IMG/VR virus record: IMGVR_UViG_2645727555_000026
Span: 1 to 5,626 of that record
Direction: 5' to 3' (one strand)
DNA length: 5,626 nt
Origin: a virus
Lineage: Duplodnaviria > Heunggongvirae > Uroviricota > Caudoviricetes
Below the pieces are notes generated by a model. It was not told the DNA's origin, searched no databases, and saw nothing but the letters and a program-made list of their open reading frames with translations. The number at the start of each line of letters is the position of its first letter. Within the stretch, counting starts at the first letter, position 1. The translations under genes and the position numbers were made by a program. Below are positions 1,717 through 5,144 of this stretch, piece after piece.

Positions 1717-1746
1717 TGTTGTCGTCAACAGGCAACGTGCTATCAT
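1717..1746 (+). promoter_or_regulatory. Putative sigma70 promoter of parDE overlapping a short palindrome (possible ParD operator), inside a divergent promoter region
   Basis: TTGTCG (1719-1724), 16-nt spacer, TATCAT (1741-1746), about 35 nt upstream of the parD ATG. TGTTG (1717-1721) and CAACA (1726-1730) form an inverted repeat around the -35. On the opposite strand TTGACG (complement of 1721-1726) could serve as a -35 for the leftward operon. Pattern-based only. Confidence 0.35.
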
Positions 1747-1781
1747 CGAATGGTGTTCTATCCTACTCCGTGAGGTTTACC

Positions 1782-2039
1782 ATGCGTACAACCCAACAAT
1801 TCAGCATTACATTAACTAACGAAATGGCTGACATGGTGCGCGCCCGTGTGGCTTCCGGTGCCTATGCTTCAGAAAGCGAGGTCATTCGTGAAGGGCTTCG
1901 CGCACTGAATGAGCGCGATAAAGCAATCGAAGCGTGGTTAACGCATTCAGCCGCCCCCTCTCTTGATTCTATCCGCGAAAACCCAAACAACGGACGCTCC
2001 ATTTCACAGGTTCGCGCCGCGATTCGATCCGGGAAGTAA
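1782..2039 (+). CDS. parD: Type II antitoxin, ParD-like (ribbon-helix-helix, COG3609 type)
   Basis: 85 aa from ATG 1782 with GAGG SD 6 nt upstream (the track's upstream TTG start at 1719 is less likely). Sequence MRTTQQFSITLTNEMADMVRARVASGAYASESEVIREGLRALNERDKAIEAWL matches the ParD-type motif (..SASEVIR..LR.L.ER..). The stop lies 5 nt before the toxin start, the usual antitoxin-first TA layout. Confidence 0.85.
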   Translation: MRTTQQFSITLTNEMADMVRARVASGAYASESEVIREGLRALNERDKAIEAWLTHSAAPSLDSIRENPNNGRSISQVRAAIRSGK

Positions 2040-2044
2040 TCTGC

Positions 2045-2344
2045 ATGACATATGAAGTCATCATTACTCCTGAGGCCGAAGAACAAATAATCAACCTGCA
2101 CAGATATATAACGGAGAAAGCAGGGAACGTCATTGCTGACAATTTTGCCAATGCGCTTCTTGATTATCTTGATGGGTTTTCTACATTCCCGCATCGGGGC
2201 AATAAACGCGATGATATTCGCCAGGGGATGCGGGTAACTCATTTCCGCCACAGAACGATTATTGCTTTTGCCGTTGATGGCAGAAAAGTCTTTATTGTCG
2301 GTATCTATCATGGTGGGCAAAGTTATGAAACCGATTTCTTATAA
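2045..2344 (+). CDS. parE: Type II toxin, ParE/RelE superfamily (ParE-like)
   Basis: 99 aa, MTYEVIITPEAEEQIINLHRYI...FPHRGNKRDDIRQGMRVTHFRHRTIIAFAVDGRKVFIVGIYHGGQSY. Size and conserved pattern (Y.V.IT..AE.D, P..G..R.D.R.G.R, HR..I.F.V.G..V.I..I.HG.Q) are typical of ParE toxins. Immediately follows the ParD-like gene. Confidence 0.88.
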   Translation: MTYEVIITPEAEEQIINLHRYITEKAGNVIADNFANALLDYLDGFSTFPHRGNKRDDIRQGMRVTHFRHRTIIAFAVDGRKVFIVGIYHGGQSYETDFL

Positions 2345-2425
2345 ACTTTTACCCACATCATTCCGGTGTTAGAATTAACCGTCCGCCCCCCTCTCTTACT
2401 GGCGGATTCGTAGGCTATATAAATC

Positions 2426-2462
2426 AAAGATCCCGGCTCATGTTTGTGTCGGGATCTTTTTT
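2426..2462. terminator. Rho-independent terminator hairpin, probably bidirectional, shared by the convergent parDE unit and the minus-strand three-gene operon
   Basis: Perfect 10-bp inverted repeat AAAGATCCCG (2426-2435) / CGGGATCTTT (2450-2459) around a 14-nt loop, followed by a T-run on the plus strand (TTTTTT, 2457-2462) and preceded by an A/T-rich tract that gives a U-rich tail on the minus strand. It sits 80 bp after the parE stop and about 10 bp after the small-peptide stop. Confidence 0.7.
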
Positions 2463-2469
2463 CGGCGAT

Positions 2470-2553
2470 TTATCCCCAGCGGCAAATCGAATACACCACC
2501 AGCGCCACCGCCATCGCAATTCCTACCGTTGTGAATGCTTCAGGCCTGGTCAT
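2470..2553 (-). CDS. Unannotated 27-aa hydrophobic (single-pass membrane-type) peptide, third gene of the coupled operon
   Basis: Hand translation of the minus strand from ATG 2553..2551: [30 protein letters not shown] at 2472..2470. The ATG overlaps the TGA stop of the upstream 114-aa ORF (ATGA), with GGAGG (complement of 2563-2567) 9 nt upstream. A hydrophobic core is followed by a basic/aromatic RW end, and the terminator hairpin follows directly. Below the ORF-track size cutoff. Confidence 0.5.
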
Positions 2554-2894
2554 CGTAAAACATCCTCCACGCTTGTCAGTCCGTTTCGCTCCAGGTAGTC
2601 CATCGCCTTATCCGGCAGTTTGCAGTCCGGCTTCGCTTTCCTCAGTTGCCAGGCTAACTGCTTTACCTGCATAGTTAACTCGTCGACCAGACGCTGATAC
2701 CCCACTGGTTTGTATTCATGCAATTTACCGGCTGGCTCTGCTGCCAGCGATGCCAGTGCGATTTCCAGAACAGCAATATCCATCTTATATGTGCGGATGA
2801 TGTCATGGTCGATTGTGCCCGGTATACACAGTCTCTGTGCTTCAATAGTCTCCTCTGCGTGAGCTATTAACTGCTCTCTGGTAATAGTGGTCAT
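2550..2894 (-). CDS. Hypothetical 114-aa protein (predicted mostly alpha-helical), middle gene of the coupled operon
   Basis: ORF from the track. ATG at 2894..2892 overlaps the TGA stop of the upstream 171-aa gene (ATGA) and an AAGGA SD lies about 9 nt upstream. No family motif recognised. Confidence 0.7.
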
Positions 2895-3406
2895 GCCGCG
2901 TTTCCTTCTTTCTTATTAACAATTACACCGTCATATATTTCATTAAGGTGCCCTCTCAACTCCATGCGCCTTAATGCAGACAACATGTAATCGCATTCAA
3001 CCTGCTTATTTCCAGTAAATGGCTTATCGTCAGGATTACCCCAACAGCAATTACCCTTGGGCCACCCATGTACTTTCCGTACTCTTCCGTTAACAACGTG
3101 AAGTAATCCCCAGCCAGGTGGTAAATCCTCAATTGAAATAATTCCCGGCTCACTAATAAAGAATCGCCAGTCGCCCATTCCAAGAGACGGATTTTTACGA
3201 AAACGCTTTTTTCTATCTGCCAACAAGTCAGCACGAGAACATTTCGCCTCTATCAGGCATGATGCTGAATTTCTGAATCCCATAGCATCTGGCTGTTCTC
3301 CGGTACTGGTTACAGCTATAAAGCGGTCATGAAAACAAACCTTGAACCCGTTGCGCTTAAGGAACTTGTACGCAATCTGACAGAGTTCGCGGTGTGTTAA
3401 CGCCAT
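2891..3406 (-). CDS. Putative PD-(D/E)XK-fold nuclease-like protein (171 aa), first gene of the coupled operon
   Basis: The track ORF 2891..3436 starts at a TTG; ATG at 3406 with a strong AGGAG SD (CAAAGGAGAGTGAT-ATG) is the more likely start. Sequence: helix with Glu ([17 protein letters not shown]), beta-strand [12 protein letters not shown] (D40, codon 3289..3287), then 13 residues on, CLIEAKCS (E53-x-K55, codons 3250..3242), i.e. a PD...(D/E)XK arrangement. The C-terminal half has no recognised motif. Fold assignment is a motif-level inference. Confidence 0.7.
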
Positions 3407-3551
3407 ATCACTCTCCTTTGATGCGAATGCCAGCAAGCCAGTTTCTTATGCCGATATATTCAGCGTTCCTGAAACCGCTTTTTACATACGCTGGGCTAAA
3501 AATGAAGTTATCGCCAGAGATCGCGAAGACTGGAAGCGCATCTCCGCATCA

Positions 3552-5144
3552 ATGCGCAAACAACCTGATGCGCTTCGCTACAGCCGCCAGACTATTTTTG
3601 GCCTTGTCCGTGAACGCCCGATCGACATTCACAAAGATCCCGTGGCACTGAACAAATACATCACTGAATACCTGACTACAAAGGGCGTGTTTGAAGATGA
3701 CGAAGGAACAAATCAGGGCACAGCTAATACTCTCTCGTCGCCAGTACCAGAAACTGACGCAGTGGAAACGGCAATTCAGGACAACGAAAAAACCGAATGC
3801 AAAGTGGAAGTCGAATCATCTGTAGAGCGTGAGGGGCCGTTCTACTTCCTCTTCAGCGACAAGGATGGCGAAAAATACGGTCGTGCAAACAAACTTTCTG
3901 GTCTGAATAAGGCGCTGGCTGCAGGGGCTACTGAAATCACGAAAGAAGAATATTTTGCCCGCAAAAACGGTACATACTCAGGTTCACAACAAAATACTGG
4001 TGCATCTGACACGATCGCACAACCGGAGCCGGTAAAAGTTACCGCTGACGAAGTAAACAAAATTATGCAGGCAGCCAATATCAGCCAGCCTGACGCCGAT
4101 AAGTTGCTTGCTGTATCACGTGGTGAATTTGTTGCAGGGATTAGCGACCCGAATGATCCGAAATGGGTGAAGGAGATTGAAACCCGCGATTCAGTGAATC
4201 AGAACCAGCAAGAAACGGAACAGAACGACCAGAAAGCGGAACAAAACAGCCCAAATGCGTTACAAAACGAGCCAGAAACGAAACAATCCGAACCAGTAGT
4301 GCAACAGGAACCGGAAAAAGTCTGCACCGCCTGCGGTCAGAGCGGTGGCGGCAACTGCCCCGATTGTGGCGCTGTCATGGGCAACGCAACATACCAGGAA
4401 ACATTCGATGAAGAGAATCAGGTTGAAGCTCAGGAGAATGATCCGGAGGAAATGGAAGGCGCTGAACATCCACACAAGGAGAACACTGGCGGCAATCAGC
4501 ATCACGCCAGCGATAGTGAAACTGGCGAGGCGGCAGATCCCTTAATTAAGGTGAATGGTCATCACAATCTCACATCCACCAGCAGAGCGGGGATTCATCT
4601 GATGATCGACATTGAAACCATGGGAAAAAATCCCAATGCCGCGATTATCTCAATAGGCGCAATATTTTTCGATCCACAAACCGGAGATATGGGACCGGAA
4701 TTTAGCAAGACCATCGATCTGGATACTGCTGGCGGAGTTATTGATCGTGACGTCATTAAATGGTGGCTGAAGCAATCACGTGAAGCGCAGTCTGCCATTC
4801 TGACCGATGAAATCCCGTTAGATGATGCACTACTGCAATTGCGGGAATTTATCGCCGAAAACTCCGGTGAATTTTTTGTTCAGGTCTGGGGAAATGGAGC
4901 CAACTTCGACAACGTGATTTTACGCCGTTCATACGAACGGCAGGGGATCCCCTGCCCCTGGCACTACCACAACGATCGCGATGTACGCACAATCGTTGAG
5001 CTAGGGAAAGCCATAGACTTCGATGCCAGAACAGCTATCCCATTCGAAGGTGAGCGCCACAATGCACTTGATGACGCCCGTTACCAGGCAAAATACGTTT
5101 CAGCTATCTGGCAAAAACTGATCCCGAGTCAGGCTGATTTTTAA
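3552..5144 (+). CDS. Multidomain phage protein (530 aa): N-terminal region of unknown function, acidic Gln/Glu-rich low-complexity linker, C-x2-C-x8-C-x2-C zinc ribbon, C-terminal DEDDh (DnaQ-like) 3'-5' exonuclease domain
   Basis: Long ORF from the track; 3552 is the first in-frame ATG after an upstream stop, with no obvious SD. Zinc ribbon CTACGQSGGGNCPDCG at about 4321-4370. Exonuclease motifs: Exo I MIDIETMG (about 4602-4625), Exo II VWGNGANFDNVIL, Exo III HNALDDARYQA near the C-terminus. Low-complexity segment NQNQQETEQNDQKAEQNSPNALQNEPETKQSEPVVQQEPEK at about 4195-4320. Confidence 0.85.
   Translation: MRKQPDALRYSRQTIFGLVRERPIDIHKDPVALNKYITEYLTTKGVFEDDEGTNQGTANTLSSPVPETDAVETAIQDNEKTECKVEVESSVEREGPFYFLFSDKDGEKYGRANKLSGLNKALAAGATEITKEEYFARKNGTYSGSQQNTGASDTIAQPEPVKVTADEVNKIMQAANISQPDADKLLAVSRGEFVAGISDPNDPKWVKEIETRDSVNQNQQETEQNDQKAEQNSPNALQNEPETKQSEPVVQQEPEKVCTACGQSGGGNCPDCGAVMGNATYQETFDEENQVEAQENDPEEMEGAEHPHKENTGGNQHHASDSETGEAADPLIKVNGHHNLTSTSRAGIHLMIDIETMGKNPNAAIISIGAIFFDPQTGDMGPEFSKTIDLDTAGGVIDRDVIKWWLKQSREAQSAILTDEIPLDDALLQLREFIAENSGEFFVQVWGNGANFDNVILRRSYERQGIPCPWHYHNDRDVRTIVELGKAIDFDARTAIPFEGERHNALDDARYQAKYVSAIWQKLIPSQADF

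Follow-up and report, generated by a model that had tools for sequence, protein, structure and literature searches.

A probable 27-residue inner-membrane micropeptide gene from an undescribed family of phage early regions

The window, that is the whole stretch of DNA analysed here, comprises 5,626 nucleotides of a virus of the Caudoviricetes (IMG/VR record IMGVR_UViG_2645727555_000026), and three same-strand ORFs follow one another on its minus strand. The first, a 181-codon ORF of the ORF listing (2891..3436), overlaps by an ATGA (2891-2894) with the second, a 114-codon gene (2550..2894) for a hypothetical protein that is WP_033804843.1 in NZ_CP027766. Pfam gave no match for the product of either, and NZ_CP027766 annotates the stretch matching the 181-codon ORF as a frameshifted pseudogene. 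The third is the micropeptide gene (2470..2553), with 27 codons and a TAA stop read on the minus strand from 2553 to 2470, which confirms the 27-aa ORF proposed here by an earlier reading made from the letters of the DNA only (hereafter the sequence-only reading); it is recognised from the ORF listing, its homologous copies, coding signature, protein family and predicted helix. Its ATG and the TGA that closes the 114-codon ORF have two bases in common, in an ATGA overlap at 2550..2553 (plus-strand tcat), a translational-coupling junction that can be read directly in the sequence and that had been correctly noticed before. The ORF has, besides its own ATG, its own ribosome-binding site, a Shine-Dalgarno (SD) GGAGG at 2564..2568 (plus-strand CCTCC) located within the last codons of the upstream coding sequence. 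The GGAGG was earlier said to stand at ideal spacing; the motif is present, but its 10-nt spacer (2554-2563) is usable and slightly long rather than ideal, while after DUF551 genes, the commonest homologous context, the spacer is 7 nt. The 4-nt ATGA overlap recurs in the other inspected loci, distant relatives included, and is replaced in a minority of copies by TAATG or an adjacent stop. No unusual fold was found in the start region (z = -0.05). As the window holds 84 ORFs of at least 20 codons, a 27-codon ORF taken alone does not go beyond chance, and it is the comparative evidence that raises it above that level.

Past the stop codon the operon meets a convergent neighbour that lies outside the gene, a ParD antitoxin / ParE toxin pair on the plus strand (1719..2344; Pfam PF03693 and PF05016, and annotation). 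Between the two lies a hairpin (2412..2462, stem 2426-2437 / 2448-2459), for which a folding energy of -17.4 kcal/mol (z -4.05) was obtained on the minus strand and one of -23.2 kcal/mol (z -4.71) on the plus strand. An uninterrupted T-run is found only on the plus strand, on the parDE side (2456-2462), giving UUUUUU after the stem; on the minus strand the U-tail is interrupted (2425-2412): UUUGAUUUAU. The hairpin is restricted to copies joined to the parDE module, was not listed at 2426-2459 by a simple consensus terminator scan, and fits the convergent parDE operon better than the micropeptide operon. Of the terminator said to stand directly downstream, a stable hairpin was confirmed, a possible terminator specific to this context. 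The gene does end at this putative terminator, and other copies end at unrelated ones, but no general rule follows from it: in phage Av-05 and in P1-like plasmids the next gene begins 2 nt past the micropeptide stop.

Homologous copies of the 84-nt unit are numerous. With search patterns derived from the window sequence, 1631 of 5426 complete E. coli genomes (~30%) were found to hold it, at 3104 places in all and with up to 7 copies of the gene per genome. Stx phages, P1-like plasmids and the lytic phage Av-05 have it as well. The two Shiga-toxin phages of O157:H7 Sakai are among the carriers, and in the VT1-Sakai type the gene is the last ORF ahead of xis. In the E. coli K-12 prophages Qin, Rac and DLP12 (tblastn and motif search) no copy was detected, and identity with a known E. 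coli K-12 small protein was rejected for this reason. The gene is widely conserved and annotated almost never (0 of 13 annotated E. coli, phage and plasmid loci inspected). Its neighbours vary on both sides. Upstream, the unit is joined to at least five unrelated gene families, among them the 114-aa family, DUF551, Ea22-like genes and eaa; downstream, at least twelve unrelated sequences follow, comprising hok/sok, parDE, the pre-xis region, a gene starting at once, or one of at least five unrelated hairpin terminators. Most E. coli copies directly adjoin a hok/sok or parDE addiction module, and in most of them a Hok gene lies ~200-300 nt downstream; hok/sok is a separate unit that begins past the micropeptide stop codon. 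In all loci inspected the location is an early region (ea, nin or recombination).

The borders of homology coincide with the gene. In an alignment of four contexts it extends from the ATG to the stop codon, and BLAST matches in phages and plasmids (74-99% identity) cover query positions 8-91/92, the extent of the ORF. When copies with 64 different combinations of flanks are compared, mean pairwise identity amounts to 0.32-0.53 in the upstream flank, rises to 0.83 at the SD positions (-12..-7), is 0.81 over ORF nucleotides 21-84 and falls to 0.34 directly past the stop. It can be said that the SD site, ATG, 27 codons and stop form a self-contained cassette, which is shuffled behind many early-operon genes in lambdoid and Stx phages, P1-like phage-plasmids and a lytic myovirus.

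At the protein level, a profile search among 1.84 billion representatives recovered 111 clusters at E <= 1e-3, in which x-W-P-E-A-F is followed by a hydrophobic run of about 17 residues and by R/K. The signature of the family begins with Met-x-Trp-Pro-Glu-Ala-Phe, continues with ~17 hydrophobic residues, of which those at positions 11/13/15/17 are small, and has Arg/Lys at position 25. All 56 diverse members have W3, P4 and A6; F7 and A17 are each kept in 50 of these, and R/K25 in 42 of 54. Members were found in Achromobacter and on one high-GC phage contig; distant ones (P0144, P0146) show the 4-nt overlap with the upstream gene and lie in RecT/YqaJ early regions, and the relatives MSWPEAFFGAVFIICVAWVYVTAIKDKDD and MTWPEAFFYSVIAISIAMTAVVKILKGVDE, from phages of other genera, have the same architecture with another hydrophobic core and tail. 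Two clusters hold true in-frame fusions of the peptide. The only sequence labelled PF01848 (P0142) is a chimeric ORF in which the N-terminus of the peptide is fused to Hok.

The family is undescribed and stands outside every curated family searched. The best Pfam-A match reached 17.9 bits (cut-off 27), the best PHROGs v4 E-value was 0.0015, the PHROG that was hit changing from nearly every member to the next, NCBIfam contained no family above threshold, PADLOC gave no match and the best PDB E-value was 0.17; such sub-threshold matches are inconsistent and driven by hydrophobic composition. The peptide strings were not found in the portions of the literature consulted, including the searched supplements of Huecker 2017, Fesenko 2024 and Pro-SMP finder, and the titles and abstracts of the DUF551 literature do not mention the peptide. 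The literature and supplements searched also yielded no ribosome-profiling or proteomic record of it. Two other origins were rejected. Clusters at 90% identity group the peptide with DUF551 proteins, a grouping due to partial ORF calls in the peptide frame; the peptide is not a C-terminal tail of these proteins, which end in ...PQEVNQ and do not contain it. Nor can a programmed frameshift that fuses it to the upstream protein be the general mechanism, since the genes upstream have no relationship to one another and in several contexts (e.g. VT2-Sakai) a stop closes the peptide frame a short way upstream.

The copy in the window departs from the family at position 3. It carries W3R, an arginine where all of the 56 diverse members, and 39 of the 43 unique 27-residue peptides in the E. 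coli-type set, have tryptophan, and its exact allele occurs in 3 E. coli records only. It sits in a deletion-scarred Qin-like prophage: past ~3488 the window departs from NZ_CP027766 and joins a truncated exonuclease (530 vs 823 aa) and xis, and the three-gene minus-strand unit starts ~115 nt from the divergent truncated exonuclease gene. A promoter scan of 3437-3551 found no sigma-70-like minus-strand promoter. Given W3R and the location in a promoter-poor remnant prophage, the window copy may be impaired. It is thus a serious possibility, though less probable than its opposite, that the family is real and this copy is a decaying allele, whose peptide is not made here or is non-functional; the operon would have lost its promoter through the deletion which created the Qin-like remnant, and the junction near 3488, the negative promoter scan, the rarity of the exact allele and the altered invariant residue all speak for it. 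On the other side, R3 occurs on several backgrounds (V10, T10, A10, L7), always with an intact frame, the more complete prophage of NZ_CP027766 has an R3 copy too, preceded by a long array of genes on the same strand, and promoter scans of this kind overlook many real promoters.

The single membrane-length hydrophobic stretch seen in the sequence-only reading was borne out, with a mean Kyte-Doolittle value of 2.11 over 19 residues from residue 6 and an AlphaFold2 model in which residues 3-26 form a single helix (pLDDT 84). The flanks follow the positive-inside pattern of a helix that spans the bilayer once: across the family, the N flank holds 17 K+R vs 85 D+E and the C flank 96 K+R vs 48 D+E. 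Within the helix, G11/A15 and A13/A17 are spaced as small-xxx-small pairs, a pattern typical of helices that self-associate, and here the argument divides. A real family could consist of non-specific membrane-damaging peptides of the type I toxin, holin or pinholin kind, devoid of a specific partner, which would oligomerise via the small-residue stripes and then depolarise the inner membrane. In size and hydrophobicity the micropeptide resembles TisB, DinQ, ShoB and Ibs, an addiction module adjoins most E. coli copies, and there is a weak sub-threshold likeness to the DUF883_C glycine-zipper model (14 bits vs cut-off 27). Against this stands the arrangement of the gene. The own promoter, regulated leader and small RNA antitoxin of a type I toxin were not found, and the gene is coupled to the upstream ORF; even at a permissive threshold no Rfam family matched the ORF of the window or its vicinity, and since conservation stops at the ORF borders, no antisense RNA, promoter or structured leader around it is conserved. 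Toxin, effector and regulator, which the sequence-only reading gave as frequent roles of such peptides, are candidate roles, and no observation favours the arrangement of a type I toxin. Expression is coupled to ordinary early genes and is not tightly repressed, up to 7 copies are tolerated per genome, and the Pfam and NCBIfam toxin models (e.g. PF01848 Hok) do not match the micropeptide. The usual traits of a holin or pinholin are lacking too, as the gene occupies early regions, never a lysis cassette in the loci inspected, and codes for 27 aa vs the usual 60-150 aa. The invariant five-residue N-terminal cap, kept in phages of Gamma- and Betaproteobacteria, points to specific recognition. A membrane-damaging peptide is considered unlikely, and a dedicated micropeptide with a specific partner is preferred.

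That the unit is translated at all is indicated by its variation. Exactly 27 codons are kept in 120 of 128 copies, and both internal length changes observed (24- and 25-residue variants) are in frame. No internal in-frame stop occurs in 52 distinct DNA versions, every one of which has stops in the other two sense frames. Synonymous events number 75 vs 88 non-synonymous ones (75/163; 27% synonymous expected; p = 9e-8), pairwise dN/dS is ~0.37, and the replacements are chiefly conservative (I/V, A/V, L/F, M/I). The ORF keeps its frame and length and is under purifying selection, which is the outcome that the reading-frame check proposed with the earlier reading had called for. As a control, ~40 matches to the 20-nt pattern in unrelated genomes, which came mostly by chance from the scan of genome contigs, led to ORFs of 8 to >80 codons in which the hydrophobic core was absent. 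The first 20 nt of the ORF are near-invariant, synonymous sites included; the search anchor accounts for part of this, yet it holds in unanchored BLAST hits too, so that some constraint at the nucleotide level, or homogenisation by recombination, may be at work.

This invariance, together with the position of the unit exactly at the mosaic joints of unrelated modules, is what would be expected if the 84 nt were an untranslated junction, a patch of recombination homology between accessory-gene modules with an incidental open frame, short conserved boundary sequences being a familiar feature of lambdoid mosaicism. Such a patch would not have to finish at a stop codon, and neither the excess of third-codon-position variation, the constancy of frame and length and the conserved SD at a proper distance nor the retained architecture of MSWPEAFFGAVFIICVAWVYVTAIKDKDD and MTWPEAFFYSVIAISIAMTAVVKILKGVDE with their different core and tail agrees with it, and the idea is very improbable. 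The substitution statistics alone leave the strand unfixed, because the mirror antisense frame, which shares the wobble positions, is also open in 52 of 52 versions with a synonymous excess (72 vs 77, p = 2e-9). The reading in which the plus-strand ORF 2444..2674 (76 codons) is the real gene can nevertheless be set aside as the least credible of all, for although POCJ13 gp73 and Stx2 II ORF C38 are annotated on the antisense strand across the unit, a mirror frame is expected to give an equal dN/dS, its translation in the window copy has no methionine inside the 84-nt unit, its start and stop would have to fall in non-homologous flanks because conservation ends at both unit borders, its direction is contrary to every host operon, and the Met-x-WPEAF protein family is confined to the sense frame.

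It is concluded, with a probability of about 0.8, that 2553..2470 on the minus strand of the window is a protein-coding gene for a 27-residue single-pass inner-membrane micropeptide of an undescribed phage early-region family. The suggestion that a genuine small membrane-peptide gene had been missed by annotation is supported by the kept frame and by conservation bounded by the ribosome-binding site and the stop. Ribosomes ending the upstream gene would re-initiate at the AUGA with the assistance of the SD, so that the peptide would be made along with the delayed-early phage genes. Because it is too short for co-translational targeting, it would insert in the inner membrane after release, presumably with the acidic N-terminal cap towards the periplasm and the basic C-terminus towards the cytoplasm (N-out/C-in). 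The W-P-x-A-F interfacial cap and the small-residue stripes could then pack against a specific inner-membrane partner, which would be a host protein or further copies of the peptide, and a modified infected cell would be the effect. Both partner and cellular effect are purely inferential. If the gene is accepted, modulation of a host membrane protein falls only just short of an even chance, with superinfection exclusion or lysis-lysogeny control of the FtsH/HflKC type as candidate roles; a self-associating, membrane-perturbing pore is rather unlikely without being negligible, and cooperation with, or anchoring of, the upstream gene product is more doubtful still. More broadly, it is tentatively proposed, as an idea with a minority chance of being right, that the 'WPEAF' micropeptides constitute a pan-proteobacterial phage family, in which the cap and slim helix dock onto one conserved inner-membrane machine, the candidates being either the FtsH/HflKC protease complex, with its control over the lysis-lysogeny decision, or the phage DNA entry channel.

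Defining the family supplies annotators with a missing gene. For phage biology, the micropeptide offers an early-gene product that is compact and amenable to testing, from accessory regions (ea / exo-xis / nin) that are poorly understood but known to affect lysogeny and prophage induction. If it has a specific host membrane target, it would be an addition to the short list of phage micropeptides controlling host membrane machines; if the docking proposal is true, an early-gene switch that is very common among Stx, lambdoid and P1-like phages would have been overlooked.

Among known systems, the class of AcrZ, MgtS, MgrB, KdpF, MgtR and CydX is similar in having fewer than 50 residues, one transmembrane helix and short, positive-inside charged flanks, and in being often missed by annotation. 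These proteins pack their helix against a larger membrane protein, and the same mode may apply to the micropeptide. There is no sequence relationship (KdpF model TIGR02115, 14 bits vs cut-off 26.85), and unlike the whole class the micropeptide is phage-borne, AUGA-coupled in early lytic operons and provided with an invariant W-P-x-A-F cap. Hok/Gef, TisB, DinQ, ShoB and Ibs are likewise very small hydrophobic peptides of prophages or chromosomes, but the micropeptide lacks the antisense RNA, own promoter, folded leader and Hok-family match of type I toxins and is translationally coupled to an ordinary upstream gene. Phage-encoded proteins with one or two transmembrane helices that act on a specific inner-membrane target are also known: phiX174 E acts on MraY and LysM of phage M on MurJ, while T4 Imm and HK97 gp15 are superinfection-exclusion membrane proteins made early. 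All four are longer (37-91 aa or more), and in the libraries searched the micropeptide showed no sequence similarity to them. Closest in location are the lambda exo-xis/ea/nin genes (ea22, orf60a, orf61, orf63 and orf73, as well as DUF551 and eaa), which share the neighbourhood and the delayed-early class of the micropeptide; Ea22 of this region is reported to favour lysogeny (PMC10834534). The micropeptide matches none of the named exo-xis ORFs and forms a separate 27-codon cassette behind whichever gene is last.

The micropeptide gene occupies 27 codons of the minus strand (2553..2470; ATG 2553-2551, TAA 2472-2470), and its start codon shares bases with the TGA of a 114-codon upstream ORF (minus strand, 2894..2550) in an ATGA at 2553-2550. 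The 114-codon ORF overlaps in like manner the stop of a 181-codon ORF (minus strand, 3436..2891); no Pfam family matched either product. The N-terminus of the 114-aa protein (MTTITREQL...) is similar to that of some 185-aa DUF551 proteins (database protein P0020, MSTITRER...IALASLEAEP), and the 114-aa gene and DUF551 accessory genes may have a common N-terminal module. A Shine-Dalgarno (SD) motif, GGAGG, is located at 2568-2564 on the minus strand. Between the micropeptide and the ParD/ParE toxin-antitoxin pair (plus strand, 1719-2344; Pfam PF03693 and PF05016), which is convergent on the micropeptide operon, there is a hairpin (core stem 2426-2459) stable on both strands (minus strand -17.4 kcal/mol, plus strand -23.2 kcal/mol, with z between roughly -4 and -5) and common to the two converging units. 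On the plus strand a clean run of six T lies 3' of it and would end the parDE pair; the minus-strand tail after the hairpin is UUUGAUUUAU. The ORF, the ATGA overlap, the GGAGG and the downstream hairpin are thus present as described in the sequence-only reading, which had claimed an unannotated gene for a small hydrophobic membrane peptide, although the SD spacing, there called ideal, is usable but at 10 nt a little over ideal.

The ORF alone means little because the window contains 84 ORFs of at least 20 codons (ORF scan). That it is a real small-peptide gene is upheld by the test proposed in that same reading, conservation of the reading frame across homologous loci. Exactly 27 codons were found in 120 of 128 copies; the two internal length changes (24- and 25-residue variants) are both in frame, as are longer variants repeating a 6-nt GCGATG-type unit inside the helix, and the rest have a premature stop, reach the end of their contig or have lost the stop at a new junction. 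Such repeats, which are necessarily in frame, lengthen the helix by 2-8 residues in the database proteins P0066, P0068, P0069 and P0072-P0074 (GIAMAMAMAMAMAVAL, GIAMAVAVAVAL), and these variants look like slippage on a GCGATG/GCGGTG repeat within the ORF. Internal stops were absent from the reading frame in all 52 distinct DNA versions, and the other two sense frames were stopped in 52 of 52. When substitution events were counted once each on a minimum spanning tree, with the anchored first 20 nt left out, 75 were synonymous versus 88 non-synonymous (27% synonymous expected; p = 9e-8); pairwise dN/dS was 0.37 in the reading frame versus 0.67-1.96 in shifted frames, and residue replacements were mainly conservative (I/V, A/V, L/F, M/I). 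A negative control ran the 20-nt search pattern against a one-genome-per-species collection, where it matched 45 places. About 40 of these were chance matches with scattered ORF lengths (8 to >80 codons) and without a hydrophobic segment; the true matches (27 codons, Kyte-Doolittle hydrophobicity >=1.75) came from Escherichia sp., Achromobacter aloeverae and two tiny contigs. The contigs of Xanthomonas pisi (L145, 431 nt) and Acinetobacter idrijaensis (L168, 369 nt) encode the VT2-Sakai and P1-like peptides residue for residue, and most likely these non-enteric assemblies are contaminated there with phage or plasmid DNA of E. coli.

A 76-codon antisense ORF (plus strand, 2444-2674) has its wobble positions in common with the micropeptide frame. 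It is open in 52 of 52 variants with the same substitution numbers, as expected of a mirror frame, so substitution counts alone leave the strand unfixed. The coding strand is nevertheless that of the micropeptide, since its ATG and SD are conserved and its stop is fixed, conservation ends at both ORF borders, it is co-oriented with every host operon, and it has protein-level relatives. Antisense-strand ORFs annotated in some phage records (POCJ13 gp73, Stx2 II ORF C38) are probably over-annotation.

The 84-nt unit (the ORF with its stop) is a discrete, mobile and conserved RBS-plus-ORF cassette under purifying selection, AUGA-coupled to the final gene in early accessory arrays of phages. By BLAST it was found at 3104 places in 1631 of 5426 complete E. 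coli genomes, with up to seven copies in one genome and 163 places plasmid-borne, and it matched 88 phage and 178 plasmid records. Its hosts include VT2-Sakai and 933W-type Stx2 phages, VT1-Sakai (with no further ORF between it and xis), ArgO145, P1-like IncY phage-plasmids and the lytic Vequintavirinae phage Av-05. Even for copies at only 74-86% identity the match covers almost exactly the ORF (query 8-91/92), and in a four-way alignment homology begins at the ATG and ends at the stop codon, with differing neighbours on either side. Among 119 viral contigs retrieved with the window-derived pattern ATGANNNGGCCTGAAGCATT, the upstream genes belong to at least five unrelated families (114-aa family, DUF551, Ea22-like, eaa, others) and the downstream sequences to at least 12 classes (among them hok/sok, the parDE hairpin, a spacer ahead of xis, a following gene that starts 2 nt past the stop, and five or more hairpin terminators unrelated to one another). 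Mean pairwise identity across 64 distinct flank combinations was 0.32-0.53 in the upstream flank, 0.83 at the SD (positions -12..-7), 0.81 in ORF nt 21-84 (search anchor excluded) and 0.34 directly 3' of the stop codon. For the majority of E. coli copies the micropeptide stop is directly followed by a module of the hok/sok type (Hok/Gef, MokW-like; loci L002, at 1586-1950, L003, L004 and L006), and there the micropeptide marks the upstream edge of an addiction-module insertion site.

The predicted product has a single helix of membrane-spanning length. Profile searching across 5.8 billion clustered proteins, together with a complete HMMER pass over 1.84 billion representatives, gave 111 clusters at E <= 1e-3, with members such as MSWPDAIVTLGVVFAAAFVVFSICRWG (which some annotations start at an ATG further upstream, as a hypothetical protein of 40 aa), MSWPEAFFGAVFIICVAWVYVTAIKDKDD (Achromobacter), MTWPEAFFYSVIAISIAMTAVVKILKGVDE and MNWPEAFTAVGVAWAVAWALCTFMKAVSANR. 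Over 56 diverse members W, P and A are invariant at positions 3, 4 and 6 (56/56 each), followed by A, C, S or G at 15 (55/56), F at 7 and A at 17 (50/56 each), E or D at 5 (45/56), A at 13 (41/56), G at 11 (40/56) and R or K at 25 (42/54). The N-terminal flank is acidic (17 K+R versus 85 D+E) and the C-terminal flank basic (96 versus 48), so that by the positive-inside rule the N-terminus is predicted to be out and the C-terminus in. AlphaFold2 with the family alignment gave a single uninterrupted helix at residues 3-26 (pLDDT 84). Two distant members, P0144 and P0146, belong to early regions of the RecT/YqaJ type and overlap the gene of an upstream small HTH protein by 4 nt, and on a high-GC phage contig the gene is one ORF 3' of an ORF whose C-terminus carries a DUF551-like motif, again with ATGA.

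Terminating ribosomes would re-initiate at the AUGA with the assistance of the SD, so that the peptide should be made alongside delayed-early genes; in lambdoid phages the transcripts would be of the pL or pR type. With 27 residues it would be released before leaving the ribosome tunnel and would therefore require post-translational insertion; other enterobacterial small membrane proteins likewise insert after translation. The W-P-E-A-F cap would then lie at the periplasmic interface and R25-W26 at the cytoplasmic one. The cap, which does not vary between Escherichia and Achromobacter phages, and the small residues alternating along 11/13/15/17 point to specific helix packing, and for this reason modulation of a conserved inner-membrane protein is tentatively favoured, with a probability of roughly 0.45. 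A self-assembling, membrane-perturbing peptide is ranked next and appears unlikely, the invariance of the five-residue cap being hard to explain by bulk membrane perturbation. It is less likely still that the micropeptide is a partner or anchor of the upstream gene product, which has some support from P0151 (143 aa) and P0153 (206 aa), where an Ea22-like coiled-coil ORF runs in frame into the micropeptide (...DLPPLESNKMSWPDAF...); such fusions would be tail-anchored and possibly hint at a functional link with upstream proteins. A type I toxin architecture (no antisense RNA, own promoter, leader or Hok match), a part in hok/sok (a separate unit, beginning after the stop codon in most E. coli copies), a lysis-cassette gene (the location is outside lysis cassettes) and the C-terminus of DUF551 proteins are ruled out.

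The 90%-identity clusters nevertheless lump the micropeptide with genuine DUF551 proteins from which it is absent, and many partial ORFs in its frame (P0015, P0037, P0097, others) carry the NCBI label 'DUF551 domain-containing protein, partial', which is an annotation-propagation artefact. No family member scored above threshold in Pfam-A, NCBIfam, PHROGs v4, PADLOC or PDB sequences, and Rfam had nothing at or near the locus. The weak matches (KdpF, DUF883_C glycine zipper, POT and MFS helices, a different PHROG for nearly every member) reflect hydrophobic composition. The micropeptide is annotated in none of 13 annotated E. coli, phage and plasmid loci inspected, and its sequence was not found in the published papers or supplements searched; a few submitters name it 'bacteriophage protein' or 'prophage protein', for example KRR59888.1, the exact window allele. 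It is without a K-12 small-protein name because it is absent from the K-12 Qin, Rac and DLP12 prophages.

Over its leftmost 3.5 kb the window shares 99.7% identity with a lambdoid prophage in E. coli 2013C-3342, where the order is ea/nin-like gene array, 114-aa gene, small ORF, parE/parD (opposite strand), rem-like gene, DUF968 (ydfU-like) and RusA. Because the block of 114-aa gene, micropeptide, hairpin and parDE also occurs in the early-left region of the Stx2a phage ArgO145, it moves between pR-side and pL-side arrays. Identity with the E. coli genome NZ_CP027766 ends at about 3488, beyond which a 530-residue exonuclease (plus strand, 3552-5144; Rv2179c-like domain) and a DUF1233 excisionase stand on the opposite strand. 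The exonuclease thus abuts the minus-strand nin/ea-type operon (flank 2891-3436), with no immunity/replication region between them and no sigma-70-like site on the minus strand of the junction interval 3437-3551 (promoter scan). Since the exonuclease is shortened from the 823 residues of its homologue in strain A10, where a Qin-type prophage adjoins rspB, the window appears to be what deletion has left of a Qin-like prophage, with a junction that lacks the immunity and replication region. Its allele carries Arg at position 3 (TGG to AGG), where Trp stands in 56 of 56 diverse relatives and in 39 of 43 unique 27-residue peptides of the E. coli-type set. The exact allele is present in only three E. 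coli records, and R3 occurs on several sequence backgrounds with the frame intact. The W3R allele and the remnant state combined give somewhat less than even odds that the window's copy, within a family that is itself real, is impaired or silent.

The micropeptide family is real, very widespread, unannotated and, in view of its Stx phage hosts, medically adjacent. It is a previously undescribed family in a familiar class, the small membrane proteins of phages and bacteria made by translational coupling.
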